DNA of 64,000 nucleotides, taken from positions 5,653 through 69,652 of the forward strand of contig CAIKYX010000130.1 of the NCBI GenBank assembly GCA_903831745.1, read 5' to 3'. Numbering within the stretch: position 1 is the stretch's first letter; each line of letters opens with the position of its first letter. Origin of the DNA: Oligoflexia bacterium (GTDB lineage: Bacteria > Bdellovibrionota > UBA1018 > CAIMNF01). The position numbers were made by a program, and so were the translations under genes. Shown here in pieces: positions 26,717 through 54,864 of the stretch. Under the pieces are notes generated by a model, which saw only the letters and a list, made by a program, of their open reading frames with translations, was not told where the DNA came from and ran no database searches.

Positions 26717-27700
26717 TCATAATCCGGATCGAAACTCGCGTCCCAATTCCCACTCATAGGTGCCTTTTACAATCGTTTCAAGCTCTGCATATTTTGGACA
26801 CCACCCCAACTCTGCTTTTGCCAAGCTCGAATTCGCGATCAGAGTGGCGGGATCACCGACTCGCCTCGGAACGATCGTAGTAGGTACTTTTTTACCCGAA
26901 ACCGCTTCAACGACCTTGATGACTTCAAACACAGAGTAGCCGCTGCCATTACCGAGATTGTAAATTCCGGATTGGTTGGAAGTATTGATCTTCTGAAGCG
27001 CCAAAACATGCGCTTGCGCAAGATCACTGACATGAATGTAATCGCGGATGCAGGAACCATCGTTTGTCGGATAATCATTTCCGAAAATCTGAAGCGGTTT
27101 ACCCCCGAGTGCGGCCCGCACGACGAGCGGAATAAGGTGGGTCTCGGGGACATGATCTTCACCCACTTCGAGTTCGGGATCGGCTCCGGATGCATTAAAA
27201 TACCTTAAAATCATGCCCTGAAAACCATATGACCTCTGAAAATCGAGAATCATTTTTTCAGACATGAACTTCGACCAGCCATAGGGATTGATCGGTTCGA
27301 GCGGATGGTCTTCGGTCAATGGAACACTTTTCGGCGTTCCGTAAACCGCAGCAGTACTCGAAAAAACGATTTTTTTAACCTGGGCCTGCTTCATTGCCGA
27401 AAGCAGACTCAAAGTGCCGAGTACATTGTTTTGGTAGTAGGCGGCAGGATCACTGGATGATTCGCCCACCACAATGTAAGCCGCAAAGTGTACGACCGCT
27501 TCAATTTTGTAATCGATCAGGGATCGCACGAGATGGGCGTGATCTGAAAGATCGCCCTTCACCCATTTTCCCCATTTGATGGCGCGCTCGTAGCCTCGGC
27601 TGATATTATCGTAAACCACCGGATTGAATCCGGCTGCAGCCAATGCTTTACAGGTATGACTTCCAATATATCCCGCACCACCGGTTACCAATATATTCAT
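26717..27700 (-). CDS. galE: UDP-glucose 4-epimerase
   Basis: 327 aa. MNILVTGGAGYIGSH, catalytic YGWSKFMSE (YxxxK), and a GalE-like C-terminal substrate domain. Confidence 0.9.
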   Translation of the reverse strand: MNILVTGGAGYIGSHTCKALAAAGFNPVVYDNISRGYERAIKWGKWVKGDLSDHAHLVRSLIDYKIEAVVHFAAYIVVGESSSDPAAYYQNNVLGTLSLLSAMKQAQVKKIVFSSTAAVYGTPKSVPLTEDHPLEPINPYGWSKFMSEKMILDFQRSYGFQGMILRYFNASGADPELEVGEDHVPETHLIPLVVRAALGGKPLQIFGNDYPTNDGSCIRDYIHVSDLAQAHVLALQKINTSNQSGIYNLGNGSGYSVFEVIKVVEAVSGKKVPTTIVPRRVGDPATLIANSSLAKAELGWCPKYAELETIVKGTYEWELGREFRSGL

Positions 27701-27788
27701 GAATTCAAGGCTACACTAAAAAAGGATCGACGACTATTGTACCCATCATTTTCTATATCTCGGCCAAAATAGGGTGTAAACTGGTCGC

Positions 27789-28544
27789 ATGATCAGCGTT
27801 GTGACCATTACCTACAACAATTACGAAGAATTGATTGAAACCCTGGATTCGATCAAGGGGCTTACCTCCGTTCAATCGATTGTCGTCAATGGCGGAAGCT
27901 GCGAGAAAACCCGAAACTTTCTTTCGAGTTATCCGGGTGTGGTCATCAGCGAAAAGGATCATGGCATTTCGGATGCTTTTAACAAGGGGCTTAAACTAGC
28001 CGAAGGAACGGGTGTGATGTTCCTCAATTCGGGCGACCGCCTGATTTTTCGTGATTACCCTGCAGTCGCCGAAGAACTGCTTGGAAAATACGATTTCATC
28101 CATTCAGACATCATTTTCGATGATGCAATCACCGGCCCCATTCGCATGAAACCCGCCCTTTGCTCCGTAGGGTATGGCATGCCTTATTTTCACCAATCGA
28201 TGGTCATCAAAAGCGAATGGATGAGAAAAGCAGGCCTTTTCGATCTGAATTTTAAAATCGCCATGGACTACGATTATGTGATCAGGCTTCAGAAACTCGG
28301 AGCGCGTGGATATTACTTTAATGCCGCACCGACCATTCATATGGATGGCCAGGGAATTTCAGCAACCCAGGAAAACAAGAGCCTGGCCGAATGTTATACC
28401 TCGATGAAGAAGAACGATGTGCTGAACCTTCAGAACCGTGCTGGCTTCGCGCTAAGAAAAGCGAGATTATCGGCCAGACAAACCTTAACCCGCCTGGGCC
28501 TTCCTTCGGTCATCGGCTGGATCAAGAAAATCAAACACTCTTAG
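27789..28544 (+). CDS. Glycosyltransferase family 2
   Basis: 251 aa. MISVVTITYNNYEELIETLDSI...SEKDHGISDAFNKGL...FLNSGD (GT-A fold DxD-like). Confidence 0.8.
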   Translation: MISVVTITYNNYEELIETLDSIKGLTSVQSIVVNGGSCEKTRNFLSSYPGVVISEKDHGISDAFNKGLKLAEGTGVMFLNSGDRLIFRDYPAVAEELLGKYDFIHSDIIFDDAITGPIRMKPALCSVGYGMPYFHQSMVIKSEWMRKAGLFDLNFKIAMDYDYVIRLQKLGARGYYFNAAPTIHMDGQGISATQENKSLAECYTSMKKNDVLNLQNRAGFALRKARLSARQTLTRLGLPSVIGWIKKIKHS

Positions 28545-29659
28545 TCCTGGTCGATATGAAAAAGATCTTTTTGTGAAAAAGCCTGCAGAGACGCTGAAAA
28601 ATCCTGCTTCATGCTGCCTTCATCAAGATATCCCACCCAATTGATTTTCGGAAACATCGACCCGCCAAAAAGCTCTTTAAAATGACTGATCGACACTTCT
28701 TTCGCCGAGGCTTGATACAACCAATGCGGCCCGAAATAAAGCTCACCCAGCTCGTAAAACAAAAACCCCAACTTGCGGTAATGCAGAATCGCTTCCCATT
28801 CGAGAATATGCCGCGGCGAATATTCACGCTCATATTCCTCGAGATTCGCCTGCGACCAACTCCAAACCATTTTTGAAAACTCACCACAATACAAAAAACT
28901 AATGGGTTTTTCTTCGACAAAGGCCACAAAAAGGCGCGCTTGCCCCTGGTGAGCACGGGCGAGCATGGCATCCCAGGTCGAGTGAGGCCTGGTCCACCGT
29001 CCCGCTGAAAGATAATGGGCATTCTTAAAAGCCGCGAAATTCGCGTCGAGTTCTTGAGCGCTTTCACTAGCAGAAAAAGATCGAACACTTACGCCCTTTT
29101 TGGCGGCCTGCCTGACGTTGATTCGGTGCGATTTAGAAACGTTATTTAAGAGCGTCTCTTCAGGCAAACTCAGGTTCATGATGGCAGTATTCTTGATATC
29201 CGAAAGGAATCCATACTTCTTCATCTCGAATCCATTTTCAAAACCCACGAGACTCTGATCGCACACCCCTCGGGTAATCGGGTGACTGATCATTCGCACC
29301 TTTTTTGCCCCTGCTTCTCGAGCGATACCGTAAACCTGTGCAAAAACCTCGGCAGAGATCTTGCGACGCAGTGTTGGCTGAATGGTGACGAACGCAGGTG
29401 CGGCTAATGGATTTCCACCCAGTGACAGTTCGTTTTCACCGGTTTTGGTATTTTTAGTCAGACCCAAAGCACAAACCGCAAGCGGGGTCTTTTCGTTTTC
29501 AAGCAAAATGAATGATTTTTGCTCTGTATTTTCATCAAAAAGTTGATTGTAATGAAGCCAATCCCAGCCATGCTGGTAAGTCGCTTCTTGAATCTGATTT
29601 ACCCAACCATCCCATTGTTCGCGCGTCGTCGCCTGGTGATGCTTGACTTTAAACTCCAT
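28541..29659 (-). CDS. FemAB-family / GNAT-fold acyl- or aminoacyl-transferase (Acetyltransf_6/DUF482-like)
   Basis: About 372 aa, starting at MEFKVKHHQ (ATG 29657-29659; 11-nt overlap with the pseI stop). Two-lobed GNAT-like architecture resembling FemX/FemAB peptidyl-transferases (LFVAFVEEKPISFLYCGEF...YSPRHILEWEAILHYRKLGFLFYELGE). Confidence 0.6.
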   Translation of the reverse strand: MEFKVKHHQATTREQWDGWVNQIQEATYQHGWDWLHYNQLFDENTEQKSFILLENEKTPLAVCALGLTKNTKTGENELSLGGNPLAAPAFVTIQPTLRRKISAEVFAQVYGIAREAGAKKVRMISHPITRGVCDQSLVGFENGFEMKKYGFLSDIKNTAIMNLSLPEETLLNNVSKSHRINVRQAAKKGVSVRSFSASESAQELDANFAAFKNAHYLSAGRWTRPHSTWDAMLARAHQGQARLFVAFVEEKPISFLYCGEFSKMVWSWSQANLEEYEREYSPRHILEWEAILHYRKLGFLFYELGELYFGPHWLYQASAKEVSISHFKELFGGSMFPKINWVGYLDEGSMKQDFSASLQAFSQKDLFHIDQD

Positions 29660-30710
29660 TTCGAACCATCTCCCAACGAAGCGCCTGCCCTCTGAGAAGC
29701 GGTACTTTTGCCGTGCCCGCAAGAACCTGATCCATGTGTTTCGGATCAAGGCCATGTCCCGGTCGAATGATTCTTACATTTTCGTTCGTAAACTTCTCGC
29801 CGGCCTGCATGTCTTTGATGACGTAGATCGAACGCTTGAATTGAATCGACTTCTTTTCTCCCTCAGACAACTCGAAAGTCATTTTACCCAAACCCTGCCA
29901 CGCACGAAGCGACTCATCGACCAACAACTTTAACTCGTGGGGTTCCATCGAAAACGCAGAATCGACTCCACCTTCGGCCCTACTTTCGGTAAAATGCTTC
30001 TCGATCACTCGTGCGCCAAGCGCAATACTCGCGACTGACACACCGATTCCGAGCGTGTGGTCCGACAAACCAATATTCAAATCGAGTTTTTCGCGCAAAA
30101 AAGGAATGGTCATCAGATTGGTTGCCAGAGGTGATGCGGGATACGTGCTGGTACACTTTAGAAGAATCGCATCGCTTGCGCCTTCCTTCTTTAGAAAGGC
30201 ATCGAGCTCTTGAATATGTTCGAGCGAGGATATGCCGAGCGAAATAATGACGGGTTTTCCGGTTTTGATTACCTTTCGAATCAGAGGATAATGATTGTTT
30301 TCGAAAGAGGCGATTTTGTAGCATGGTGGATTGAACTGTTCCAGAAAATCGACCGCTGCTTCATCAAAGGGCGTACTGAAACAGATCAGGCCATGTTTTT
30401 TGGCGCGTTCAAAAAGAGCCGCATGCCATTCATACGGGGTATTGGCCTCTTGATACAATTCATAAAGTTTTCGACCCGCCCAAAGGCTCTTGGGATCTTG
30501 AATGATAAAATCAGGAGCATCACAGTCGATGGTCAGACTATCCGGCGTATAGGTTTGAAGCTTGATCGCCTGTGCGCCCGCTGCTGCCGCAAGGTCGATC
30601 AATTTAAGGGCCCGGTCTACCGAATGATGGTGATTACCAGAGAGTTCAGCAATGATGAACGGTGGATGATCCGGACCGATCTGATATTTTCCAATTGAAA
30701 CAGTTTTCAT
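29649..30710 (-). CDS. pseI: Pseudaminic acid synthase (NeuB family)
   Basis: 353 aa. MKTVSIGKYQIGPDHPPFIIAELSGNHHHSVDRALKLIDLAAAAGAQAIKLQTY is the NeuB TIM-barrel start. C-terminal antifreeze-like SAF domain. Neighbours are pseG/pseF/pseB/pseC. Confidence 0.85.
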   Translation of the reverse strand: MKTVSIGKYQIGPDHPPFIIAELSGNHHHSVDRALKLIDLAAAAGAQAIKLQTYTPDSLTIDCDAPDFIIQDPKSLWAGRKLYELYQEANTPYEWHAALFERAKKHGLICFSTPFDEAAVDFLEQFNPPCYKIASFENNHYPLIRKVIKTGKPVIISLGISSLEHIQELDAFLKKEGASDAILLKCTSTYPASPLATNLMTIPFLREKLDLNIGLSDHTLGIGVSVASIALGARVIEKHFTESRAEGGVDSAFSMEPHELKLLVDESLRAWQGLGKMTFELSEGEKKSIQFKRSIYVIKDMQAGEKFTNENVRIIRPGHGLDPKHMDQVLAGTAKVPLLRGQALRWEMVRNGV

Positions 30711-30762
30711 AGAATTAAGAATATTATAGCAAATTTGCCTGATAGTTCACTATACTTTTAGC

Positions 30763-31752
30763 ATGCGAATCCTCTTTAGAGTCGACTCATCGCTCGAAAT
30801 CGGAACCGGACATGTGGTTCGCTGCCTTTCACTTGCCCATGCACTGAGAAACAATGGACATCAAGTGTCTTTTTGGAGCCTTGACCTTCCGGGCAATGAT
30901 CTTTCGTCAATCAGAAAAAATGGTTATTCGCTGTTTGATCCTGCTTCTTCAGATCGATTTGATCTGGCGATAGTAGACCATTATGGAATTGATCAGGAAG
31001 GCGAAAACCATATCAGACAATGGGCGACCTCGCTTGTTGCCATTGATGACTGGGGAACCAGACTTCATCACGCCGATTTGATTCTCGACCCATCGGTAAG
31101 CACCCAATCGACCCTTAGAATAAAAGCCAATCCAACCACACCGTTTCTGACCGGATTTGATTGGCTGCTCATGCGGGATGATTTCAAGAAACTTCATCCA
31201 GAAGTTCCACCTCGAACTGAATTTAAAAAGGTACTTTTGTTTTTTGGTGGAACCGATCCGCAGAGCCAGTGCCTGAGTTACCTCGAAGCACTCCTTCAAT
31301 CACAAAACGAATTCAATCATCTTGAGTTTCACATGATGGTTTCGGCAGTCCATCCAACACTCAAACAAATGCAGAGCCTGAAATTGCCAAATCATGTTCA
31401 TCTTGAAGTTTCTCCGCCCTCCGTTGCAAAGCTCATGAGAAATTCAGATCTCTATCTGGGAAGTAGCGGCACCGTCACCTGGGAAAGAATGGCCATGGGC
31501 CTGACCGGCTTGATCGTTTCGGTAGTAGATAACCAAGAGGACATTGCGAAAAACCTCGACCAAATGGGGTTTCATCGTTATCTCGGAAAATGCCAGGACG
31601 TTACCCCGAAGTTTGCATTGGAAAAGCTCAAGGAATTACTGAATCAAAGTGAAATGATTTCAAGAATGTCGTCTCTTTGTTATCAAAAAGTCGACGGACA
31701 AGGAGTCGATCGATTCGTTCAGGAGCTAGAGAATCGATTCAAAGCCACTTAG
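30763..31752 (+). CDS. pseG: UDP-2,4-diacetamido-2,4,6-trideoxy-beta-L-altropyranose hydrolase
   Basis: 329 aa. MRILFRVDSSLEIGTGHVVRCLSLAHAL is the PseG hallmark N-terminus (RxDxSxxIGxGHVMRC). GT-B-like MurG/GT28 C-domain. Confidence 0.8.
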   Translation: MRILFRVDSSLEIGTGHVVRCLSLAHALRNNGHQVSFWSLDLPGNDLSSIRKNGYSLFDPASSDRFDLAIVDHYGIDQEGENHIRQWATSLVAIDDWGTRLHHADLILDPSVSTQSTLRIKANPTTPFLTGFDWLLMRDDFKKLHPEVPPRTEFKKVLLFFGGTDPQSQCLSYLEALLQSQNEFNHLEFHMMVSAVHPTLKQMQSLKLPNHVHLEVSPPSVAKLMRNSDLYLGSSGTVTWERMAMGLTGLIVSVVDNQEDIAKNLDQMGFHRYLGKCQDVTPKFALEKLKELLNQSEMISRMSSLCYQKVDGQGVDRFVQELENRFKAT

Positions 31753-33794
31753 CCCTTCGAACCATACGTCCAACTCTGATAATCATCATGATCCTGAGAC
31801 ACTTCAAACCCTGCCTCATGGGCCATGCGAATTGAAGCGGGATTGCCTTTTTTAATTTCAGCGACATAGTGGTCTGGATTTTCGAGCACAAAACACGAGA
31901 GCATTGCTTTACCGATCCCCTGTCCCTGAAGTTCGGGAGCAACCAACCAGGAAAGCTTCCAAGCCGGTTCGCCCGAAATGCGATCTCGTCGAATCATACC
32001 CACTGGCTTTCTATTTTTGATGACCATATAAATCTCGCGATCCGCATTGCTGAGGGTTTTTTCAAACCAGGCCAGATGCTGCTCGATTGGAATACTTTCG
32101 GTCTGATGCGATTGTGCCCGTACACTTTCAGAGTTACGCCACTGGTGGACCAGATGAGCATCCTCACTTGCGGCAGGCACAAAAAGCAATTGGTCACTGA
32201 ACAGTTCCGCGGAATCACAAAAAGAACGAAACACCAAAGAATCCGTCTGCTTCAGGTACTTCGAATTCTGACAAAGGCGGACATATTCTCTTAAATGTTC
32301 GCTCTGGGTAAACTTTCGCCACTCCTGCTGAATCATCGCATTTTCATTCGCTTTGAGTTTGCCCGGAAACGGGTACAAAAAATGGAGGTAATAAAACTCA
32401 TGAATTTTTGCTTTTGCATCTGCCGGCACCGCAGGAATCGCGTCAATGTTCATCAGGAATTGCTCGTATTCTTCACGGCTTTTTGGATGCACGCAAAAAT
32501 CAAAAGTAACATGCGGATTATCACCTGCATTCAACACCCGAATTCCTTGATACGGAAACTCATGACCCAAAGTACCATATACGGTAACCGCAAGATCAAA
32601 GCCCTCGTCTAACAACTGTTTATTGCTGGTATGACGAGGCAGGAATTTGATCTCCGGAAATTCCTTTTTCAATTGTTCGATAATCTCGTCATTTCCTGCA
32701 ACCCCGTTCGGATGGGCCTTCACATAAAAATCTGCGGGGCTTTGAGTAGCAATTTTTAGCGTTGCCCGAATCCAATGGTAAAAGTCAGGATAAAGCATCG
32801 AACGATAGCCATGAGGGCTGTCGAAGAAACAATGAAGAAAAACCACCACCCTCTTTTTACCATTTTGCGCAAACACCTTTGACTTCTCGTCTACAGGCGA
32901 ATGATAGGCGCTCGAATTCATGTAAGTAATGGCCTGGTCCTTTTCGCCCGAGAATCGTTTCAGCAGCATGGTTTCTGCGGCACTTTTTCCAACTTGCTTT
33001 TCGGAATCGCTGAGCCGCTGAAACGAGCCGTGATAGTCGGTAAAATTCTTGCTATGAAATGGAAATTCACTGACCAGCTTCATGCTCAATTGATCATAAT
33101 CTCCGAATGAAATTACTTTTACGCCACGAGCGAGTGCCACTCGGGCCATGATTCCGTGCTGAATATAGCTACTATAGGAAGTGATCAGATAATCGTACTT
33201 TTTTTCAGAGAGCAAGGATTCGGCGCGATTGAAAATGTGAAGTGCGCTTACCATAATCCGTTTTAAGAACGGATCCTTGAGATCAACGGTCGGGCTCGGC
33301 TTGAATCTTAAGTAAGTATCATAGATCAGGCTCCCGATCAGGATACCGTGATATTGAAGTTCGAGCAGCGAAAATGGATCTGAAAGACCCATGAAAAGAT
33401 CTTCTGCCTCTGCAACCCAGACCGGATTCAAATCAGATTCATAAAAGATATGAGAGAAAACGGCCTTACCCCCATTTGACTGGTAGAGTTTGTTCCACTT
33501 TCTTTCGAAGAATCGATTTCTCTTGAGGAATCCTGATTTGCCAGAACGTTGGAACTCCGTATTGACATTGATCCAGCCGATATCGACTTTGAATTTTCTC
33601 CTGAGCGAGCGAAGAAGCGAAGAAAACAACAGCAGATAATAGTACTCTTCTGGCATCTGAACCAGTACTTTCAATTCCGAACCCGTTTTTGAAGGCACGA
33701 CTAACGATCGATTGAAACGGATGAATTCCTTCTCTGCAGCGTTAAGAAAAACCGCTGACTTAACGTTCTGAAGTTGAAGAAGGACTTTATTCAT
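31749..33794 (-). CDS. Two-domain protein: Capsule_synth (KpsC/KpsS)-like putative nonulosonic/keto-sugar-acid transferase + C-terminal PseH-like GNAT N-acetyltransferase
   Basis: 681 aa. N-terminal ~540 aa carry KpsS-like motifs (VVVFLHCFFDSPHG ... DFYVKAHP ... FDLAVTVYGTLGHEFPYQGIRVLNAGDNPH). The C-terminal ~130 aa form a GNAT (MVIKNRKPVGMIRRD...LVAPELQGQGIGKAML). Paralogous to the 33887..35347 product. Confidence 0.65.
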   Translation of the reverse strand: MNKVLLQLQNVKSAVFLNAAEKEFIRFNRSLVVPSKTGSELKVLVQMPEEYYYLLLFSSLLRSLRRKFKVDIGWINVNTEFQRSGKSGFLKRNRFFERKWNKLYQSNGGKAVFSHIFYESDLNPVWVAEAEDLFMGLSDPFSLLELQYHGILIGSLIYDTYLRFKPSPTVDLKDPFLKRIMVSALHIFNRAESLLSEKKYDYLITSYSSYIQHGIMARVALARGVKVISFGDYDQLSMKLVSEFPFHSKNFTDYHGSFQRLSDSEKQVGKSAAETMLLKRFSGEKDQAITYMNSSAYHSPVDEKSKVFAQNGKKRVVVFLHCFFDSPHGYRSMLYPDFYHWIRATLKIATQSPADFYVKAHPNGVAGNDEIIEQLKKEFPEIKFLPRHTSNKQLLDEGFDLAVTVYGTLGHEFPYQGIRVLNAGDNPHVTFDFCVHPKSREEYEQFLMNIDAIPAVPADAKAKIHEFYYLHFLYPFPGKLKANENAMIQQEWRKFTQSEHLREYVRLCQNSKYLKQTDSLVFRSFCDSAELFSDQLLFVPAASEDAHLVHQWRNSESVRAQSHQTESIPIEQHLAWFEKTLSNADREIYMVIKNRKPVGMIRRDRISGEPAWKLSWLVAPELQGQGIGKAMLSCFVLENPDHYVAEIKKGNPASIRMAHEAGFEVSQDHDDYQSWTYGSKG

Positions 33795-33886
33795 TGCTCT
33801 GGCAGCCTTTTGAAAAACATTTTTCCATTGGAATTAAACTATGTTAAGTTGTTTTATTAAGAATCAAGGATAAAAGCGAGGAAATT

Positions 33887-35347
33887 TTGAAAAGCCTGAT
33901 TTATAATGGAACTCATTCGCAAGTTTCGATCGACATCCTGAAAGGGATCCTCGCCTCCTCACCCGCCCTTGAAGATGTGTGCATTATTTCTTCAGTTGCT
34001 GCGAAGCCTGAAGAAATCGATTTCAAGCAAATCCGCCATCAGGAATTCGATTATTTTAAGGTTCATGATGCCATTTATCCTGAAATCACAGCGCTTCAGC
34101 AAGGGCTGATGCTCGACGGCCCCAGACTCGATCAGATGTCTTCCTATTGGTTCGTCGCTCTTAAAATGATGGATCGGCTGTCACCCGAAATTGCCCTCAA
34201 TTACCACACGCGCATGGAGCTTCTTCTCAATCACATCCGTTTTTGGGATGCGTACCTGACTGAATACAAAGTCGATTGCTACATGGGAATGAATTATCCC
34301 CACGAGGTTTTTGATTACGTCATTTATGCGCTTTGCAAATCGAAGGGTATTCGCACCCTGTTCTTCGATACACCTCAAGTTCCGGGTTATGTTCAACTGA
34401 TTGATTCGGTAGAAGAAAATAATCCTCAAATTAAAAAACTGATTGAAGCCCAGCCAGCCCCTGCGAACATCAGGCTCGAACCCAGACTCGAGGAGTATTA
34501 CCAACGTCAGACTACGAATTATCAGACCCCGAAATACATGCAAAAGAATCTGGCCAGTCTGAAGCGCGAAACCTCTACGGTCCAACTCATTCAACGTTTC
34601 TTTACCCGCTCTTGGTCGCGGATCAAGCGTGCCGTGACGCTGAGGCATCTCAATTATGACCGCGTGATTAAAATTCTTTATTTTAATACCCTCTTTGGTT
34701 CAAGGGCAGAACGAAAACTCAAACAGGCCTACCAAGCATTGGTCAGCATTCCCGACTTTTCAAAACCGTATATTTTTGTTCCGCTTCATTTTCAACCCGA
34801 ATGCACCACCAGCCCCCAAGGCGGTTATTTTGTGTTTCAAGAGCTCCTGATCGAGATGTTAGAGCGCACTTTGCCCGAAGGGCACCTGATCTACGTCAAG
34901 GAACATCCGATTCAACGATTACACGGACGCTCAGCCGGATTTTATCAAAAAATTGCAGCATTTAAGAAAGTCAGACTCGTTCCACTCGAAACCAGTGCAC
35001 AAGACCTCATCAAAAGCAGCCTCGCCGTTGCTACGGTAACCGGCACCGCGGGATGGGAAGGACTCTTCAAGAATAAGCCCGTATTCTTGTTTGGATCGGT
35101 ATTCTTTCAATATGCCCCGGGAGTATATACGATTCGAAGTGAAAGCGACTGTAGGCTTGCACTCAAAGAAATTCTCTCTCGAACCACTCCATTCGATTTT
35201 TCGAGAGAGCTCAGATATTTTTTATCTAAGGTACCAGAATTCATGATTCGCGGATGGATCGATTCTTCCTATGAAGATGTTGCGGGCATCACTTACCCCG
35301 AAAACCTCAAAAACCTCGTTACCGCGGTTCAGAATCGCCTTCGATAA
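33887..35347 (+). CDS. Capsule_synth (KpsC/KpsS)-like putative glycosyltransferase (paralog of 31749..33794 N-domain)
   Basis: 486 aa. Apparent TTG start with a GAGGA RBS. Motifs YIFVPLHFQPECTTSP, LIYVKEHP and SSLAVATVTGTAGWEGLFKNKPVFLFGSVFFQY parallel the KpsS/KpsC signature (LQV..D / KxHP / S..GfEAl..gKPV). Confidence 0.6.
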   Translation: MKSLIYNGTHSQVSIDILKGILASSPALEDVCIISSVAAKPEEIDFKQIRHQEFDYFKVHDAIYPEITALQQGLMLDGPRLDQMSSYWFVALKMMDRLSPEIALNYHTRMELLLNHIRFWDAYLTEYKVDCYMGMNYPHEVFDYVIYALCKSKGIRTLFFDTPQVPGYVQLIDSVEENNPQIKKLIEAQPAPANIRLEPRLEEYYQRQTTNYQTPKYMQKNLASLKRETSTVQLIQRFFTRSWSRIKRAVTLRHLNYDRVIKILYFNTLFGSRAERKLKQAYQALVSIPDFSKPYIFVPLHFQPECTTSPQGGYFVFQELLIEMLERTLPEGHLIYVKEHPIQRLHGRSAGFYQKIAAFKKVRLVPLETSAQDLIKSSLAVATVTGTAGWEGLFKNKPVFLFGSVFFQYAPGVYTIRSESDCRLALKEILSRTTPFDFSRELRYFLSKVPEFMIRGWIDSSYEDVAGITYPENLKNLVTAVQNRLR

Positions 35348-35351
35348 AATC

Positions 35352-36677
35352 CTAAAGGATTTTTCTGAAAACAGGCTTGGCCACGTCACCTACCAAGAAC
35401 TTCTGATACCCGCCTTCGAGCGCCTTTTGATAAACCTCGAGAGTACCGCCCAACGCTTCCATGAAAGAGTCCGCTTCAGCTTTCTCGTGAGAAAAACAAG
35501 GCACAAACACACCTTGAAACAACACGCCTCGCTTGATCATTTCTTGAAGCGCCAGGGTGCGCATTCCTGGACACACTGTATTTTCTTTGTTCTTAAAAAT
35601 AAACATCGGAAACCACTCGCTCGGCACAAACTGAACGTAATCGGCCAAACCATTTTTTTGAATCAGTGCTTTGGCCGCTTCCGAAAAGTAATTTCCAATT
35701 TGATGATTGTGTTGAAGCACATTCTTGGTCTTGAATTCGTGAATAGTGGCAATCGCTGCCGCGAGCGATATCGTTTCGCCGCCATGAGTACTGGAAATCA
35801 AAAATACTTTCTCATCACCCTTCTTTCGAATTCCCCCCAGCTCCATGACCTCTTTCTTTCCGGTCAGGGCGCAAAATGAAAAACCGTTGGCAATTCCCTT
35901 ACCCCACGTCGCCATGTCGGGCACCACGCCGTACTTCTTGATTGAGCCAGGAAAGTCGGTTTTAAAACCGGTAATCATCTCGTCGACAATAAAAAGCGCA
36001 CCATTTTTAGCGCAAATTTCTTGAATTTCTTTAAGGTAGGTCGGGGCGTGAATATTGCTCTTTTCGGGCTCTGAAATCACACAAGAAATCTGATTCGGGT
36101 ATTTTACAAACAGCTCTTTTAACGTTTCGAGATCTGTAGATTTGAAAGTCAGACTTAAATCAGAAAACTCTTCGGGCACTCCGCGGTTACAAGCCGTCTT
36201 TCCAATAAACCAATCATCATAAGAATAAAATGGATGATCCCCCGGAAAAGCCACTAATTTTCGATTGGTCTTTGCTCGAGCAAGCTTTACAGCGGCAGTG
36301 GTGACGGTAGATCCGTTCTTTGCAAACTTGATCATGTCGTGGCCTGGCGTGAGCGACAAAAAAGCCTCAGCAGTCTGACGCTCGAGCACTGACGGTCGTT
36401 GAAAATTTACACCATCCTCGAGTGCGCGTCGTACCGCTTCATTGACCGGCTCATAGGCATGACCCAAACTCACCGAAGTTAGTCCCATCGAACAATCCAG
36501 ATATTTATTTTCATCCAGATCCCAAACATAAGCTCCCTTGCCTCTCAGGATCGCAGCCGGTGCTTGTTCTGGAAACTGGTCGTCTCCTTTTGAATAGGTG
36601 TGCGCCCCCCCCGGAATCAGGTCGTGAATGACTTTTCGGTATTCGTTTGATTTTTGAAATTGAGTAATGAAGTTCAT
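35352..36677 (-). CDS. Class-III (glutamate-1-semialdehyde aminomutase-like) PLP-dependent aminotransferase
   Basis: 441 aa. GAHTYSKG, DCSMGLTSVSLGHAY, FIVDEMITGFK, and PLP-lysine context MATWGKGIANGFS. Confidence 0.85.
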   Translation of the reverse strand: MNFITQFQKSNEYRKVIHDLIPGGAHTYSKGDDQFPEQAPAAILRGKGAYVWDLDENKYLDCSMGLTSVSLGHAYEPVNEAVRRALEDGVNFQRPSVLERQTAEAFLSLTPGHDMIKFAKNGSTVTTAAVKLARAKTNRKLVAFPGDHPFYSYDDWFIGKTACNRGVPEEFSDLSLTFKSTDLETLKELFVKYPNQISCVISEPEKSNIHAPTYLKEIQEICAKNGALFIVDEMITGFKTDFPGSIKKYGVVPDMATWGKGIANGFSFCALTGKKEVMELGGIRKKGDEKVFLISSTHGGETISLAAAIATIHEFKTKNVLQHNHQIGNYFSEAAKALIQKNGLADYVQFVPSEWFPMFIFKNKENTVCPGMRTLALQEMIKRGVLFQGVFVPCFSHEKAEADSFMEALGGTLEVYQKALEGGYQKFLVGDVAKPVFRKIL

Positions 36678-36687
36678 AATTACGTCC

Positions 36688-37362
36688 TTATTCCTGAATC
36701 AAGGCCAGATAGTCCCGCCAAGGACGATCGTACCCTATTTGTTTCACTAGTTTTGAAATGACTTGAAAATCTTCTTCGCGATCGACAGTCAGGCGGATTT
36801 TGCTTTGATCAATACCCTGGGCATGATTTCCGAGCTTAAATATTTCGGGATGTTCCCAAATATACGGGGTAACATGTTCGGTCTCGCGAGGTTTCGACGC
36901 TTCATCAAAAGCCCGTTTCAGAGCACTGAATCGAAAGATTTCTACATCGAGTCCATCCGGATAAGTCGCAGGGTGAACATTCGAATAGTAATCAAAATCC
37001 GATTTTTCGAATTTTTGCAGCATTTCGTCGATCATCGCACCGTCGTTCAAAGGACAATCAGAGGTAACTCGAATGACTGTCTCGGGTTGATAGCGTTCGG
37101 CTGCGCGGTAAAACCGTTCAAGCACATGGTGAAGTGACCCGCGATAAGAAAGACAGCCCATTTTTGTTGCAATCGAAACAATTTCTACCGACTCGGGCTC
37201 GTCCGTTGTTGCCACCATGATTGCGTCAGAAAGATGCGACCACTTAAGTCGGTGCAAATGAATCTCAAGTAGAGTCACTCCATCGATGGTCTTCAGAACT
37301 TTGCCCGGAAGCCTGGTTGAACCAAAGCGAGCCTGAGTGATGATCAGAGTTTTCATTTCCAA
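36688..37362 (-). CDS. pseF: Pseudaminic acid cytidylyltransferase (CMP-NeuAc synthetase family)
   Basis: 224 aa. MEMKTLIITQARFGSTRLPGKVLK (CTP_transf_3 signature). Confidence 0.8.
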   Translation of the reverse strand: MEMKTLIITQARFGSTRLPGKVLKTIDGVTLLEIHLHRLKWSHLSDAIMVATTDEPESVEIVSIATKMGCLSYRGSLHHVLERFYRAAERYQPETVIRVTSDCPLNDGAMIDEMLQKFEKSDFDYYSNVHPATYPDGLDVEIFRFSALKRAFDEASKPRETEHVTPYIWEHPEIFKLGNHAQGIDQSKIRLTVDREEDFQVISKLVKQIGYDRPWRDYLALIQE

Positions 37363-38222
37363 GCCCTCGGATCAATCCATTTCGGATTTTCAATCTGGAT
37401 ACTCGATATTTGGTCGATGATACCTGGGCTTAAAATCTGACTTTGAACAGAAAGGTTATCCATCAGCTGCCTTTGACTTTCGACTCCGATAATGATCCGA
37501 TCGATTTCTTCGAAGTGCGAAGCATAGGCGAGAGCCAGATGGTTTACCGGTAACCCCATTTGTTTTGAAAGTTCGCGCAAACGCAGAAGCTCTGGCTTCA
37601 GAGGCTTGAGCATCTCCGGCAAGAGTTCGAGTTCACGATAAAAAAGCCCCTGCAAAAACACCGAGCGCACATGGACTTCTTTTTTGTTGGCTTTGGCTCG
37701 CCTGATCCCAGGCCCTCGGAGCGACCAATTATCGAATAAATTAAAAGGTGTTTGAATGATATCGATGTGGTCAAGCAGAGCGGCAGCGTCGAGCTCCTCA
37801 ACAGTATAAACAGACACGCCGATTTTCTGAATCAGGCCACCGTTCTTTAGGTCAAGAAGTTCGTGCTTTTTCTCGAGGTCATGAACGTCGGAAAACTGAT
37901 GATAGGAATAGCCATATACTCCGCAAACACCCAACCGCTCCAGACTCGAACTCAGCTGTTTTTTCAAGCTTGCTTCGTTAGATTTGAATTTGGTCAGAAT
38001 TTTAAAATGATGGTTTGGATGTTTTAAAAAATAACTTCCGATGATTTGTTCGCTCTCGCCGTAACTCTCGGCAGTATCCAGATAACGGATTCCTTCGCGT
38101 TCACAGAGATCCAGGATCAAGAAGGCTTCGCCTTCGCTCGGTTTTCCGGTTTGATTGTTAATGCCATAAGGCAATCCCAATTGAACCGTACCCAAGACCA
38201 GTTTCTCTTGAAGAGAGTTCAT
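37353..38222 (-). CDS. Aldo/keto reductase
   Basis: 289 aa. LVLGTVQLGLPYGINNQ...LDTAESYGESEQIIG is the AKR N-terminal signature. Translationally coupled to pseC (upstream) and pseF (downstream). Confidence 0.8.
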   Translation of the reverse strand: MNSLQEKLVLGTVQLGLPYGINNQTGKPSEGEAFLILDLCEREGIRYLDTAESYGESEQIIGSYFLKHPNHHFKILTKFKSNEASLKKQLSSSLERLGVCGVYGYSYHQFSDVHDLEKKHELLDLKNGGLIQKIGVSVYTVEELDAAALLDHIDIIQTPFNLFDNWSLRGPGIRRAKANKKEVHVRSVFLQGLFYRELELLPEMLKPLKPELLRLRELSKQMGLPVNHLALAYASHFEEIDRIIIGVESQRQLMDNLSVQSQILSPGIIDQISSIQIENPKWIDPRAWK

Positions 38223-39373
38223 CGCGCAAAAAACTCCTTCAGACTACCCACGACCCGAGTCTGCTCTTCATCTGACATCGAGTGATACATCGGAATACTC
38301 AAACACTGATTATAGAAAGCATCAGACAGTTCGAACTGTTGCTTTCCATAGCGTTCAACGTAATACGGATGCTGATGCACCGGTATGTAGTGAACTTGGG
38401 CATAAATATTTTTGGTCTTTAAGAAGTCATAAAGTTCGCGACGCTGGGCCGTCTGAATCACGTACAAATGAAATGCATGAACCGAATCAGGCGCGGTATA
38501 AGGAAGTACTACCGGTAGATCCTTTAGCTCGTGATCATACCGTTTTGCAATCTCCTGACGCCGTTTAAAATTAGCTTCTGCACGCTTAAGCTGACTATTT
38601 CCGAGGGCACAGAGCATATCTGGAATGCGATAATTGTAACCCAACTCTTGCATCTCCATAAACCAGCCCCCGTCGTTTCGGGCCATTTGTGCCGGGTCTT
38701 TGGTAATGCCATGAGTGCGAAGTTTCTGCATCCGCTGATAGAGCTTCTGGTCGTTAGTCGTGATCATTCCCCCTTCGCCGCTCGCGATGTGTTTGACCGG
38801 ATGAAATGAGAAAATGCTGAGCTCGGAATATTTGCCGTTTCCTGAGCGCTGCACCGTCTTTTGCGCATCTAAAAAACTCGCCCCAGGAGCATGACATGCG
38901 TCTTCGATGATCCAAAGTCCGTAACGATCGGCCAACGCGCGAAAAGCATCCGCCTGAATCGGATGACCAGCATAATCGACAGGAATAATGCCAGAATATT
39001 TCTTGGGATTCTTTTTCAGCAAATCCTCGACCCTGTTTAAATCGAGGCAATAAGTTTTAGGATCGATATCGGCGAAGTCGACATCGCCTCCGCAATAAAG
39101 AACACAGTTCGCACTCGCCGCAAACGTAATGGGGCTCGTAATCACTCTTTGGCCAGGCTTTACATTCAGTGCCATTGTAGAAAGATGAAGGGCTGCGGTT
39201 CCATTGGCCACAGCAACTGCATATCGGGCGCCTACGTAACGGGCAAACGCTTCTTCGAATTCGTTCACCATCGGACCTTGGGTTAAAAAATCAGATTGCA
39301 ACGAAGCCACTACCGCCTGAATGTCGTCTTCGGTGATTTGCTGCTTGCCATAAGGAATGGTTGAACTTGCCAT
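38219..39373 (-). CDS. pseC: UDP-4-amino-4,6-dideoxy-N-acetyl-beta-L-altrosamine transaminase (DegT family)
   Basis: 384 aa. IPYGKQQITEDDIQAVVASLQSDFLTQGPMVNEFEEAF matches the PseC N-terminus pattern. PLP lysine in SFHPVKHIASGEGG. Directly downstream of pseB. Confidence 0.82.
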   Translation of the reverse strand: MASSTIPYGKQQITEDDIQAVVASLQSDFLTQGPMVNEFEEAFARYVGARYAVAVANGTAALHLSTMALNVKPGQRVITSPITFAASANCVLYCGGDVDFADIDPKTYCLDLNRVEDLLKKNPKKYSGIIPVDYAGHPIQADAFRALADRYGLWIIEDACHAPGASFLDAQKTVQRSGNGKYSELSIFSFHPVKHIASGEGGMITTNDQKLYQRMQKLRTHGITKDPAQMARNDGGWFMEMQELGYNYRIPDMLCALGNSQLKRAEANFKRRQEIAKRYDHELKDLPVVLPYTAPDSVHAFHLYVIQTAQRRELYDFLKTKNIYAQVHYIPVHQHPYYVERYGKQQFELSDAFYNQCLSIPMYHSMSDEEQTRVVGSLKEFFAR

Positions 39374-39375
39374 GA

Positions 39376-40386
39376 TTACGCCTCGAAATGGTGGTCAACA
39401 TGTTCCTTGATCTGGACCCTTAATTCTTCAGCCGACAACCATTCTGTGTTTTCGCCCGAATTGTATTTAAACCCTTCGGTAACAAATTTTGCCGAAAACT
39501 TTTTCAGGTAATCGTCTTTCTTCCAGTTCGGATGACTTGGAATGATGACATAATACTTTCCGCAATCGAGCGTATTCAGCGAATCTGATTCAGTAATCAT
39601 CTCTTCGTGTAACTTTTCGCCCGAGCGAATTCCCACGATCTCGGTCTTACATTTCGGACCAATGGCTTTTGCCATTTCGAGAATTCGATAAGAAGGAATC
39701 TTCGGGACGAAAATCTCGCCGCCCCAGGAATTTTCGAGCGCATGAAGTACCATCTTTACACCCTCTTCTAGCGTAATATTGAAACGGGTCATGTTTTCGT
39801 GCGTTACTGGCAGCGTTCCGGTCGAACGCATTTTCATGAAAAACGGAACCACAGAGCCGCGAGAGCCAAGCACGTTTCCGTAGCGGACCACCGAAAAAGT
39901 GAGATCGCGTTTTCCCTTAATATTATTGGCAGCAATGAAAAGCTTGTCCGAGCATAGTTTGGTTGCACCATACAGATTCACCGGTGCCGCCGCCTTATCG
40001 GTCGAAAGCGCAACCACCTTGGTGACACCGCAATCGAGGGCTGCGTTGATGACATTTTCGGCGCCGAAAATATTGGTGTTGATACATTCCATTGGATTGT
40101 ACTCGGCAGTCGGAACCTGCTTGAGCGCCGCTGCATGGATGATGATGTCGACACCTTCACAAGCACGTTTCATGCGGGCACCATCTCGAACATCACCAAT
40201 GAAATATCTCATTTGCGGATATTTCTTCGGATCAAATTGCTGGGCCATTTCGAATTGCTTGAGTTCGTCCCGTGAGTAAACAATTAATTTTTTTACTTCG
40301 GGATAAAGCTCCAGAACCATCTGAATGAATTTTTTTCCGAAAGATCCGGTTCCACCGGTTACCAATATGGTTTTACCTTTTAGCAT
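39376..40386 (-). CDS. pseB: UDP-N-acetylglucosamine 4,6-dehydratase (inverting)
   Basis: 336 aa. MLKGKTILVTGGTGSFGKKFIQMVLELYPEVKKLIVYSRDELKQFEM...HAAALKQVPTAEYNPMECINTNIFGAENV...YGATKLCSDKLF is near-identical in pattern to Campylobacter/Helicobacter PseB (FlaA1). Confidence 0.92.
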   Translation of the reverse strand: MLKGKTILVTGGTGSFGKKFIQMVLELYPEVKKLIVYSRDELKQFEMAQQFDPKKYPQMRYFIGDVRDGARMKRACEGVDIIIHAAALKQVPTAEYNPMECINTNIFGAENVINAALDCGVTKVVALSTDKAAAPVNLYGATKLCSDKLFIAANNIKGKRDLTFSVVRYGNVLGSRGSVVPFFMKMRSTGTLPVTHENMTRFNITLEEGVKMVLHALENSWGGEIFVPKIPSYRILEMAKAIGPKCKTEIVGIRSGEKLHEEMITESDSLNTLDCGKYYVIIPSHPNWKKDDYLKKFSAKFVTEGFKYNSGENTEWLSAEELRVQIKEHVDHHFEA

Positions 40387-42089
40387 ATTCCACCTCTATC
40401 TTTTTTCAGCTCCAGGGTTCTGGTAGCAATTTTATCGAAACTTGATTTGTGACTGATGATAATGGTCGTAATTTCTTTGAGAATGCCTTCGATCGAACGA
40501 ATGAATTTGGATTCTGTTTCGCCATCGAGATTGGCTGTCGCTTCATCGAGAATCAGGATCTGGGGCTTTCGAACCACGCCACGTGCGATGGATAAACGCT
40601 GCTTTTGTCCGGTCGACATGGGCGTTTGTTCTTGAATGAAATAATCGAGAGCAAATCGCTCGTCAGTGAGTTGCGCTTTTAAAAGAGCGTCTTTCATCTC
40701 CGCATCGGTCACTGTTTCTGGACTATGGTGACCGAACAAGAGGTTTTCGCGAATGGTTCCTGCAATCATATAGGGTTCGGGCCCGACATAGGCCACTCGT
40801 TCGAACAAACTGTTTTTTACAGATTCAATGGGCGCACCATTGATCAGCACCCCACCCCGGCTGGGCTTAAGTAGACCGAGCACCAGCATCAAAAGCGTGC
40901 TTTTACCGACTCCCGATTCGCCCTTGATCAGCAGCACCTGACCACGCCCCACCTCGAGGCTCAAATCATTGAATAGCTTCGGACCGCTGACATAACCAAA
41001 ATCGACGTTCTTAAGCTGAATCGAAACACCTTGCTCGCATGAAAGCGGAAGAACCGGAAACTTCTTCTCGGAATCTTCTTTTGCTTTTTGCTGACTCAGA
41101 CGTTCGTGCCATTGATAGATTTCCTTGAACCCTCCGAGATGAAGTCTGAATTCAGAAAGGGCAATATTGGCATCGCTCGCCCCTTGAGCTAGCCTGATAA
41201 AAAGATAGAAAAACGAAATCAGGGTAATCGCAGGAGTATGAATGTAGGCGATGCTGATATAGGTGATCGAACTGATGACAAAAATGCCAATGATATTCGG
41301 AAAGAAATTTTTTACAGAAGAGGCAACGAAATACGAACGGTAGTGCTGCTCGTAAACCACCAGAGCCGTATTCGCTCGTTTGATTTCACGATCTAACAAA
41401 CCATAGATCTTCAGCAAGAAATGGTGCCTCAGGCCTTCCATCAAAATCTTACTGACATTCTCCCACTGCCCACGAAAGCCATCTCCTGCTTTTTTGATGC
41501 CGGAATTGAACCGCCTGAGAGGGACAAGAAAAATACCGAGAAAGGTAAGCCCGATCAGCATCTCGATCGGTGCAAGCTTAAGCCCCATGGCAAAAAACAA
41601 AAAGGAAGAAGTTCCGACTAGCGTGAGTTGCGACAAGGACTGAAGCACTGAACCCGCCTGTGCCACACGTTCGGTAAAAATAGTAATGACCTGATGTGCA
41701 GAAACATCTTCGGCCTTGAGAAGCGCATACTCGAGCGTTCGAGAACGCTGAAGGCGAACGAACGCCTGCCCCGTCACGCCAGCAAGATAGGATCGGATCA
41801 TGTAAGCCACACCGCGGGCTACTCCGAACGTAAACAGAATCAAGACGGCTGAAAGAAGACTTGTCGGATACCACGCCGGCAATTTAAGGTCAGGCGACTT
41901 TACCAAGCCAATCGCCTGAAGAAATCCTTGAAGCACCGGAATAAACGACGCTTCGATCAGGAACATGAAAATTCCAAAGACGGTGGAAACAAAGAAAAGT
42001 CTCCAGACTTCCTTACCTAAAAAATTCTTAAACTTCCGAAATTGCTGCAGGTACTTTTGAATCATGTTTTGATTGAAAAAGGGTACCAA
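40380..42089 (-). CDS. ABC exporter, fused TMD-NBD half-transporter (type I exporter, MsbA-like fold)
   Basis: 569 aa. Six N-terminal TM helices, Walker A GESGVGKST, signature LSGGQKQRLSIARG (as read on the protein), Walker B ILILDEATANLD. First gene of the minus-strand operon that continues into pseB-pseC-AKR-pseF. Confidence 0.85.
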   Translation of the reverse strand: MVPFFNQNMIQKYLQQFRKFKNFLGKEVWRLFFVSTVFGIFMFLIEASFIPVLQGFLQAIGLVKSPDLKLPAWYPTSLLSAVLILFTFGVARGVAYMIRSYLAGVTGQAFVRLQRSRTLEYALLKAEDVSAHQVITIFTERVAQAGSVLQSLSQLTLVGTSSFLFFAMGLKLAPIEMLIGLTFLGIFLVPLRRFNSGIKKAGDGFRGQWENVSKILMEGLRHHFLLKIYGLLDREIKRANTALVVYEQHYRSYFVASSVKNFFPNIIGIFVISSITYISIAYIHTPAITLISFFYLFIRLAQGASDANIALSEFRLHLGGFKEIYQWHERLSQQKAKEDSEKKFPVLPLSCEQGVSIQLKNVDFGYVSGPKLFNDLSLEVGRGQVLLIKGESGVGKSTLLMLVLGLLKPSRGGVLINGAPIESVKNSLFERVAYVGPEPYMIAGTIRENLLFGHHSPETVTDAEMKDALLKAQLTDERFALDYFIQEQTPMSTGQKQRLSIARGVVRKPQILILDEATANLDGETESKFIRSIEGILKEITTIIISHKSSFDKIATRTLELKKDRGGIC

Positions 42090-42182
42090 TAAATAGCTGC
42101 CCCAGCAACGTTTAACCCATAATATCGTTTAATTTTAAAGGGTTTTTGTTCATTTTTTGCTTTTATGATACACTGAAGCCCA

Positions 42183-48614: not shown

Positions 48615-49306
48615 AAGCCCTCTTGCTTGCAGCCGGTCTCGGCACGCGCCTTCGCCCACTCACCCTCACCACACCCAAATGCCTGGTTCCCATTGCAGGC
48701 AAACCCCTTCTCGAATATTGGCTCGAAAAACTCGAATCAGAAAACATCGACACACTGATCAACACCCACTATATGAGCGAACTGGTGATTGAGTACCTAA
48801 AGGGGCATCCTCATCGAAATCGAATCGAAACCGTATCGGAAACAATCTTACTGGGTACCGGCGGAACCCTGTTAAAGAACCGAAAGTTCTTCGCAAATGA
48901 TTCGATCTTACTTGTTCATGCCGACAATCTTTCGCGCTTTTCTTTGCCGGCCTTTCAGAAGGCGCATGCCGAACGCCCGAGCGGTTGCGTAATGACCATG
49001 ATGACGTTTGAATCTCCGGCTCCAGAAACCTGCGGAATTCTCGAGTTAGATTCGCGCGGTGTCGTGACTCGCATGCACGAAAAAGTAAAAAATCCACCCG
49101 GAAATCTGGCCAACGCTGCGGTTTATATTCTCGAGCCCTCCATCATGGCGCATTTGGAAAGCTTGGGCCGCGACGTCATTGATTTCAGCACGGAGGTCAT
49201 TCCACATTTTCTGGGTAAGATCGCCACTTTTGCCAATACCGATTATCACCGCGACATCGGGTCGATCGAGAGTTACGAGAAAGCGAACCTCGATTTTAAG
49301 ACTTAA
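48611..49306 (+). CDS. Sugar-1-phosphate nucleotidyltransferase (HddC/GMP-like, GlmU-fold)
   Basis: About 231 aa. TTG start overlaps the upstream stop (TTGA). [36 protein letters not shown] is the G-x-G-T-R-L NTP-transferase motif. Confidence 0.78.
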   Translation: [231 protein letters not shown]

Positions 49307-50950: not shown

Positions 50951-50955
50951 GTGTT

Positions 50956-54861: not shown

Positions 54862-54864
54862 ATC

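Follow-up and report, generated by a model that had tools for sequence, protein, structure and literature searches.

Nonulosonic acids shape the recognition of bacterial surfaces by phages, predators and immune systems, and the enzymes of their biosynthesis are sought for glycoconjugate synthesis. Here, we analyzed a gene cluster for a pseudaminic acid (Pse)-type nonulosonate in an Oligoflexia bacterium (Bdellovibrionota; assembly GCA_903831745.1). It lies in a stretch of 64,000 nucleotides of contig CAIKYX010000130.1 (positions 5,653 to 69,652), referred to in the following as the window. The closest described systems are the CMP-Pse5Ac7Ac pathway of Campylobacter jejuni and Helicobacter pylori, the Flm system of Caulobacter crescentus and the lipopolysaccharide (LPS) O-antigen cluster Lp6_762-775 of Legionella pneumophila serogroup (Sg) 6/12. 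With the first of these, the window shares PseB, PseC, PseG and PseI equivalogs and a GNAT acetyltransferase in the place of PseH. In contrast to C. jejuni and H. pylori, the cluster has no PseF-family enzyme, its GNAT scores below the PseH cut-off and is fused to a transferase, an aldo-keto reductase (AKR) and a class-III aminotransferase (AT) are added, and the context is one of polysaccharide export instead of flagellin and Maf.

Caulobacter resembles the window in its non-PseF type of cytidylyltransferase (CT) and in the relationship of PseG to FlmD (25.5% identity, E = 4e-23), but differs in that flagellin is glycosylated via FlmG and the reconstituted gene set contains neither AKR nor AT (PMC7591256). 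The Legionella cluster, likened here by gene list, comprises the same set of genes: CapD/PseB-like, DegT, aldo/keto reductase, acylneuraminate-type cytidylyltransferase, ‘GSA aminomutase’, PseG, GNAT, Capsule_synth and NeuB (PMC3694923). It is likewise a surface-polysaccharide locus with ABC-transporter export; however, it adds the amidino genes WbuX/HisH/HisF and uses Wzm/Wzt, and its sugar product is unassigned (PMC3694923).

Our preferred reading, to which we assign a probability of roughly 0.55, is that the locus makes a Pse-type nonulosonate, which is tailored by the AKR and the AT and placed in an exported cell-surface polysaccharide. On sequence grounds, the AKR, CT and AT together are a widespread, conserved, often fused and uncharacterised module of Pse-type loci, and the window is an ordinary member of this large class. 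All open reading frames (ORFs) listed in a preliminary description of this DNA were recovered at the same positions. A chance assembly of genes can be dismissed, as the scores of the profile hidden Markov models (HMMs) reach equivalog level and dozens of genomes show the same synteny.

The assignment to the Pse type is carried by the core enzymes. NCBIfam equivalog calls were judged against the curated cut-offs (given as bits vs cut-off), and the Pfam/NCBIfam annotation covers the window ORFs at 18–63.5 kb. PseB, PseC, PseG and PseI all exceeded their cut-offs, and the window proteins stayed below those for legionaminic (Leg) and neuraminic acid (Neu) enzymes (LegB 71.6 vs 475; LegC 208.9 vs 420; NeuB, for the window PseI, 258.4 vs 399.65). 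The conversion of UDP-GlcNAc to a nine-carbon acid by PseB, PseC, PseG and PseI can thus be regarded as shown at the family level. This profile check had been proposed in the preliminary description, and its outcome agrees with the Pse type named there. The complete canonical six-step route that was claimed alongside holds for these four equivalogs only; PseF is represented by another family and PseH by a weak match.

A PseH-like GNAT, as described before, is present as the C-terminal domain of a 681-aa ORF (31749-33794, minus strand), but it is not a PseH equivalog (TIGR03585 48.2 vs 93.1, residues 538-632). Its best match in the Protein Data Bank (PDB) is C. jejuni PseH (4xpk) at an E-value of only 1.5e-3, and it aligns with Caulobacter FlmH at 29% identity over 80 aa (E = 1.4e-7). 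N-acetylation is most likely carried out by this domain. The 681-aa ORF is a lineage-specific fusion, found on three contigs, of a 534-aa-type KpsC-like transferase and a 152-aa-type PseH-like GNAT. In the two closest relatives of the locus, the metagenomic contigs L086 and L088, the two parts are separate, non-adjacent genes (transferase 10001-11605 and GNAT 13991-14449 in L086; 10001-11620 and 17118-17588 in L088), the stand-alone GNATs having 152-156 aa and 44-45% identity to the window domain. In about 21 Flavobacterium-type loci (e.g. L003 11353-12369), a ~340-aa protein ends in a PseH-like GNAT, while its N-terminal half is unassigned. In L003, four ORFs downstream of the CT-AT gene were scanned and none matched the PseG model TIGR03590; PseG may be replaced or very divergent in the Flavobacterium loci.

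The gene previously named pseF is not a member of the PseF family, since it scores far below the cut-off of TIGR03584 (20.3 vs 205.7), and encodes a CTP_transf_3 enzyme of the FlmC/SpsF type. It aligns with Caulobacter FlmC, whose sequence was translated from the synthetic operon printed in PMC7591256 (suppl. 3), at 36% identity over 201 aa (E = 3e-39). The N-terminal CTP-binding Arg/Lys motif is intact (‘QARFGSTRLPGK’), and among solved structures, an uncharacterised cytidylyltransferase (PDB 6oew, 136 bits) comes closest. In Escherichia coli, a six-gene Caulobacter set (FlmA, B, H, D, NeuB, FlmC) sufficed for Pse glycosylation, with FlmC as the sole cytidylyltransferase of the set; the CMP-Pse synthetase activity of FlmC is inferred only from this reconstitution (PMC7591256). 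Judging from these similarities, the CT is likely a CMP-nonulosonate synthetase, and the CTP activation step is probably carried out by a family other than PseF. No other CTP_transf_3 cytidylyltransferase was found among the ORFs annotated at 18–63.5 kb. Divergent CTs upstream of the AT in some related loci were considered as canonical PseF and rejected, as they do not match TIGR03584. Likewise rejected were the Sinorhizobium rkp genes as an instance of the same CT type, since a canonical PseF (RkpN) is used there.

To place the module in a broader context, one genome per GTDB species was scanned for AT relatives. At least 488 species contain a close one; the best 80 loci from the 488 resulting stretches were analyzed, and the presence of PseB, PseC, PseI and PseF was counted in the 51 full-length loci among them. 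CT and AT are fused in 33/80 loci and a separate CT lies directly upstream of the AT in another 39/80, and in 63/80 the AT is preceded by an AKR at a distance of at most 3.5 kb. PseC accompanies the module in 48 of the 51 full-length loci, a PseI-family gene in 47 and a PseB-type gene in 45. The recurring gene order is PseB-PseC-(GNAT)-AKR-CT-AT-(PseG/GNAT)-PseI, with the module nearly always sitting between pseC and pseG/pseI. Other frequent neighbours are the amidino genes WbuX/HisH/HisF, a PIG-L deacetylase, a formyltransferase, methyltransferases, Capsule_synth proteins and Wzx. The preliminary description had taken the AKR and the class-III aminotransferase for peculiar to this locus. The cluster does contain enzymes that the Campylobacter/Helicobacter scheme lacks, but these two are kept in order with the CT across phyla, often as fusions. 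Only the FemAB-like gene, the fusion of glycosyltransferase (GT) and GNAT, and the placement of the ABC exporter gene first in the operon are locus-specific and constitute its novelties. In the literature, we found the combination of AKR, glutamate-1-semialdehyde (GSA) aminotransferase and cytidylyltransferase only in passing mentions (Legionella Sg6/12, Vibrio B9-25K2) and no functional study of it. A fusion of AKR and CT is reported from Vibrio B9-25K2 (PMC7371886); none was present among the best 120 AKR homologues.

Both additional enzymes keep their catalytic positions. In the AKR, the catalytic Asp/Tyr/Lys/His positions align with those of IolS (‘LDTAESYG’, ‘LTK’, ‘YHQ’). Its homologues number 1307 at E <= 1e-20, a few of them fused to a GNAT (e.g. 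in Gillisia). The AT is 62-80% identical to proteins of Bacteroidota, Bdellovibrionota, Beta- and Alphaproteobacteria, a conservation across phyla equal to that of PseB and above that of PseC or PseI, and many of its relatives are ~695-aa fusions with a CTP_transf_3 domain. The pyridoxal phosphate (PLP)-binding Lys K260 and Asp D232 align with the catalytic positions of GSA aminomutase and are invariant in the alignment (A1). A role as HemL was rejected on the basis of the score (TIGR00713 187.5 vs 527.3) and the context. Among the relatives of the AT with known structures are the aminoglycoside C-6' sugar aminotransferases and epimerase.

A paralogous AT subfamily (43-45% identity) is encoded on plasmids of Rhizobiaceae, Roseateles and Streptomyces. 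In 4/4 plasmid records (L082, L083, L084 and L085; plasmids of Shinella, Streptomyces, Agrobacterium and Roseateles), it belongs to a conserved cassette with a class I methyltransferase, a glucose-1-phosphate cytidylyltransferase, a PIG-L protein, a short-chain dehydrogenase/reductase (SDR), a DUF4910 protein and an RfbC-like epimerase. This cassette is of a CDP-hexose type and apparently undescribed. Because the paralogue is accompanied by a glucose-1-phosphate cytidylyltransferase in all four records, the constant partner of the AT family is a cytidylyltransferase of either fold. This suggests as substrates of AT-family enzymes either keto sugars linked to a cytidine nucleotide or the sugar just ahead of its cytidylylation. 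The database name ‘glutamate-1-semialdehyde aminomutase’ misleads; the AT is a sugar-pathway enzyme tied to cytidylyltransferases.

Two further features, overlooked in the preliminary description, point to the fate of the sugar: the 486-aa Capsule_synth ORF and the putatively KpsC-like N-terminal domain of the 681-aa ORF. The best PDB sequence matches of the former are KpsC proteins (E ~1e-6) across the motif ‘YVKEHP’. The latter carries the motif ‘YVKAHP’, of which K359, H361 and P362 are invariant in 43 homologues; its family consists of stand-alone 520-540-aa proteins. It matches no Pfam model, and a profile of the family retrieved nothing from the PDB sequences, leaving the fold comparison as the only informative one. 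The AlphaFold model, a confident one (pLDDT 93), has a predicted GT-B fold with its longest superposition on KpsC, and the domain aligns locally with the 486-aa ORF across the K-x-HP motif (E = 5e-4). Retaining ulosonic-acid transferases of this kind are KpsS/KpsC (GT107), WbbB (GT99) and KpsS1 (GT118). The 486-aa ORF falls into the Capsule_synth Pfam family and both window proteins carry the K-x-HP motif, whereas sequence identity is very low and the 681-aa N-domain lies outside Pfam. Since the two ORFs are KpsS/KpsC-like and the KpsS relative KpsS1 of Acinetobacter baumannii is a demonstrated retaining Pse5Ac7Ac transferase (PMC12887879), the locus contains two candidate pseudaminyltransferases, the 486-aa ORF being a putative pseudaminyltransferase and the 681-aa N-domain a second putative ulosonic-acid transferase.

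The window belongs to a genome assembled from freshwater-type metagenomic samples, and its nearest relatives are found among ‘Deltaproteobacteria’ and Bdellovibrionota metagenome-assembled genomes. L086 and L088 share most of the locus, with AT and PseB as the best conserved proteins (Table 1), and both transferases, the GNAT, the AKR, the 650-aa protein and the FkbM methyltransferase are syntenic in the closest relatives.

Based on these data, the following scheme can be proposed. PseB, PseC, PseG and PseI would convert UDP-GlcNAc to the nine-carbon acid, with N-acetylation by the PseH-like GNAT, and the FlmC/SpsF-type CT would, by homology, activate the sugar with CTP. Gene order, fusions and the other contexts of the family suggest that AKR, AT and CT act as one functional module tailoring this sugar. 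In the most likely chemistry, the AKR would oxidise a hydroxyl group (at C8 or C4) to a ketone, followed by PLP-dependent transamination by the AT; the substrate could be the free acid, shortly before a CT of its own activates it, or else the sugar already linked to CMP. One additional amino group would thereby be introduced, and the FemAB-like acyltransferase could cap this group. Based on family, motif and fold, the two KpsS/KpsC-like enzymes would transfer or polymerise the sugar, and the ABC half-transporter, encoded by the first gene of the pseB operon, would export or flip the product. A similar logic, oxidation of an ulosonic-acid hydroxyl, transamination and CTP activation, is known from the Kdo8N route of Shewanella, in which the oxidoreductase KdnB and the aminotransferase KdnA act before KdsB. 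The analogy is a pure one: KdnB is an Fe-alcohol dehydrogenase, KdnA belongs to another aminotransferase class, and the modification is at a primary carbon, which Pse lacks (C9 = methyl). An 8-amino nonulosonate is known from Tenacibaculum maritimum; the O-antigen paper gave no usable gene-level link, and the connection is speculative. General support for tailoring at the level of CMP-sugars comes from the SugarBase preprint, which is silent on AKR or AT. The reduced, extra-amino or aminoacylated Pse product suggested in the preliminary description is plausible. A modified, exported Pse glycan is plausible as well, supported by the widespread, often fused trio, which could not be seen from the sequence alone.

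A more specific version, tentative and rather doubtful in our view, is that the trio is an undescribed three-enzyme route to a CMP-activated triamino Pse-type nonulosonate (e.g. 8-amino-8-deoxy or 4-amino-4-deoxy), which in the window would be aminoacylated by the FemAB-like enzyme and polymerised by the two KpsC-like enzymes. If the trio indeed adds an amino group, this would be a new branch of nonulosonate chemistry. Under the triamino route, a nonulosonate class that is chemically almost unknown would be on display in environmental Bacteroidota, Bdellovibrionota and Proteobacteria, in hundreds of them. As the module has cultured carriers, among them Flavobacterium cauense R2A-7 with a CT-AT fusion and Chitinophaga qingshengii JCM 30026 with the trio and PseF, its function is directly testable.

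Several observations weigh against the preferred reading. The oxidation-transamination scheme is inferred by analogy, not from measurement, and AKRs usually work in the reductive direction. The GNAT falls short of the PseH cut-off; the ABC exporter fits no specific transporter family and is absent from L088. A canonical PseF, a Maf protein or a flagellar link possibly lies elsewhere in the genome, beyond the window. Canonical PseF occurs beside the FlmC-type CT in 10/51 full-length loci, including Chitinophaga loci with PseF (TIGR03584, 290 and 271 bits) between pseC and the AKR, in one operon with the trio. In addition, 12/80 loci contain a divergent NeuB-family gene between AKR and CT, extra to the main synthase (~326-336 aa, 20-27% identical to the window PseI and below the NeuB and PseI cut-offs). 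Because of these two co-occurrences, the trio is more than a PseF replacement, and a separate branch explains them no less well than a tailoring step. The main rival, favoured by both, is a self-contained side branch, in which AKR, CT and AT (with the NeuB-like synthase where present) would lead to a second CMP- or CDP-activated building block instead of a derivative of the PseI product, and the CMP-Pse synthetase of this organism would be encoded elsewhere. The CDP-hexose contexts of the AT paralogues point in the same direction, and we regard this branch as possible, with the odds against it. It sits poorly with the CT being a clear FlmC homologue, with the nearly constant embedding of the trio between pseC and pseG/pseI, with the lack of a second CTP_transf_3 enzyme at 18–63.5 kb, and with a module that brings no precursor-supply genes for another acid.

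A simpler explanation would be the formation of plain CMP-Pse5Ac7Ac, with the CT alone replacing PseF and with AKR and AT as dispensable or regulatory passengers. Caulobacter glycosylates with Pse using the six reconstituted genes, and as it needs neither AKR nor AT, these are not required for CMP-Pse5Ac7Ac (PMC7591256). Moreover, within NCBIfam the AKR comes closest to the regulator KidO, with no more than 68.8 bits vs 244. Unlike passengers, however, the AT is 62-80% identical across phyla, has its catalytic residues intact and forms one protein with the CT in 33/80 loci, which makes this explanation unlikely. A service of the cluster in flagellin O-glycosylation as in Campylobacter, Helicobacter and Caulobacter is very unlikely: Pse is best known as a flagellin glycan, and CT and PseG resemble Caulobacter FlmC and FlmD, but neither a Maf (Pfam) nor an FlmG-like TPR-plus-GT protein was detected among the ORFs scanned at 18–63.5 kb (1–18 kb unscanned), and the large unassigned ORFs match no Pfam family at E <= 5, Maf included. 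Instead, the two KpsS/KpsC-like transferases, GT2s, the ABC exporter and polysaccharide genes up to 63.5 kb form the surroundings. This context supports the earlier proposal of a surface glycan rather than a flagellin modification. Finally, a Leg- or Neu-type sugar might be considered since some trio loci have a main synthase below both the PseI and the NeuB cut-offs; with four Pse models above and LegB, LegC and NeuB far below their cut-offs in the window, such a product is highly improbable here.

Table 1 Features of the Pse-type locus and extra NeuB-family genes of related loci. Coordinates are those of the window unless another locus (L number) is named; matches are given as bits or bits vs cut-off; identities refer to the window proteins and the contigs L086/L088.
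Feature	Coordinates	Strand	Match	Identity (L086/L088)
GalE, UDP-glucose 4-epimerase	26717..27700	-	TIGR01179 440.4 vs 262.3	
GT2 glycosyltransferase	27789..28544	+	PF00535 41.3 bits	44% (L086)
FemAB-superfamily GNAT (Acetyltransf_6)	28541..29659	-	PF13480 43.7 vs 22	
PseI, pseudaminic acid synthase	29649..30710	-	TIGR03586 462.1 vs 340.25	51%
PseG, UDP-sugar hydrolase	30763..31752	+	TIGR03590 192.2 vs 153.55	30-48%
PseH-like GNAT, C-terminal domain of 681-aa ORF	31749..32189	-	PF13302 49.5 bits	44-45%
KpsC-like GT-B domain (predicted), N-terminal ~535 residues of 681-aa ORF	32190..33794	-	K-x-HP motif	49-52% (534-aa-type transferase)
486-aa KpsS/KpsC-like (Capsule_synth) ORF	33887..35347	+	PF05159 37.7 vs 20	45-48%; adjoins Pse genes
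Class-III PLP aminotransferase (AT), PRK06209 type	35352..36677	-	NF004856 537.5 vs 486	80%
FlmC/SpsF-type cytidylyltransferase (CT)	36688..37362	-	PF02348 108 bits	63%
Aldo-keto reductase (AKR)	37353..38222	-	PF00248 86.9 vs 24	47-54%
PseC aminotransferase	38219..39373	-	TIGR03588 480.8 vs 423.5; PF01041	65-70%
PseB, UDP-GlcNAc 4,6-dehydratase (inverting)	39376..40386	-	TIGR03589 523 vs 407.75	78-79%
ABC half-transporter (transmembrane + nucleotide-binding domain)	40380..42089	-	PF00005 95 bits	
CN-hydrolase, YafV/omega-amidase-like	42183..42950	+	PF00795 101.5 bits; NF007757 213 vs 249	57% (L088)
650-aa soluble protein, no family	42944..44896	-	no Pfam or NCBIfam match	48% (L088)
FkbM-family methyltransferase	44893..45912	-	PF05050 55.4 bits; TIGR01444 43.5 vs 37.7	63% (L088)
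Extra NeuB-family gene, L015	8279-9259			
Extra NeuB-family gene, L037	8287-9267			
Extra NeuB-family gene, L049	8282-9262			
Extra NeuB-family gene, L067	8229-9239			
Extra NeuB-family gene, L044	4118-5107			

The accessory genes named before (AKR, class-III aminotransferase, FemAB-superfamily GNAT, GT2, GalE and ABC half-transporter) were all confirmed by Pfam/NCBIfam. Their supposed membership in the same operons applies to one part of the locus: ABC-pseB-pseC-AKR-CT-AT form a single dense minus-strand unit with intergenic gaps of -7, 2, -4, -10 and 10 nt. The remainder is a mosaic of alternating convergent and divergent units, namely the 486-aa ORF (+), the 681-aa ORF (-), pseG (+), pseI-FemAB (-), GT2 (+) and galE (-). 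G+C content is even across the locus. Promoter and terminator scans of the window performed no better than on shuffled sequence, and a tRNA scan of the window returned no tRNA genes.

At the head of the pseB operon, the ABC ORF overlaps pseB by 7 nt. It has four hydrophobic segments and a PF00664 score of 24.6 bits, below the gathering score, and reaches none of the NCBIfam equivalogs (CydD/C, HepA, MsbA and PglK all below cut-off). In about 10 of the 80 related loci, a homologue neighbours a pseB-type gene. The protein is a putative exporter or flippase of the glycan or of a lipid-linked precursor. The GT2 ORF is WcaE-like (74.9 bits, below cut-off). The FemAB-like ORF overlaps pseI by 11 nt and matches FemAB models below their cut-offs (PF02388 20.6 vs 24; TIGR04421 47 vs 250). 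Predicted to be co-transcribed with pseI, it is a possible N-acyl or aminoacyl transferase. No such gene was found in the 80 related loci, in L086 or in L088. The weakly matched TIGR04421 is named ‘FemAB_IMCC1989’. In L086, the Capsule_synth gene has a PF27889 ‘PLP_IMCC1989’ gene (11589-12509, minus strand) as its neighbour, and both ‘IMCC1989’ families may be parts of a single accessory system split between relatives.

Because the CN-hydrolase, the 650-aa ORF and the FkbM gene are shared with the closest relatives, the predicted functional locus reaches ~45.9 kb, past the right-hand border assumed in the preliminary description. The CN-hydrolase gene is divergent from the pseB operon in the window and, at 57% identity, in L088 and L089, and directly faces pseB in L088, where the ABC exporter is missing. 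None was seen in the 80 more distant loci, and its membership in the locus is uncertain. Its product could remove 2-oxoglutaramate if an aminotransferase uses glutamine. The 650-aa ORF, without any hydrophobic segment, overlaps the FkbM gene by 4 nt, and its orthologue stands beside a PseG-like gene in L088. The protein is probably part of the same glycan system, with the 650-aa/FkbM pair possibly acting as a chain-terminating or modifying enzyme.

Further downstream, a second glycan block spans 46042-63454. It encodes a Zn-alcohol dehydrogenase, an HldE-like heptose kinase/nucleotidyltransferase with reversed domain order, an HddC/RmlA-like nucleotidyltransferase, an RmlD-like reductase, two GT2s, a SIS/GmhA-like isomerase, two DegT aminotransferases, two SDRs and a SAM methyltransferase, besides a thiamine pyrophosphate (TPP)-dependent E1 alpha/beta pair, a DAO-type FAD oxidoreductase and a 661-aa ORF without family. 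Such a gene set points to a modified heptose, and to an amino sugar that is branched or acylated, as parts of the same surface polymer. Within this block, the nucleotidyltransferase ORF 48398-49306 (+) overlaps the ORF 47109-48614 (+) by 217 nt and its Pfam domain begins at residue 73; the true start probably lies downstream, near 48.6 kb.

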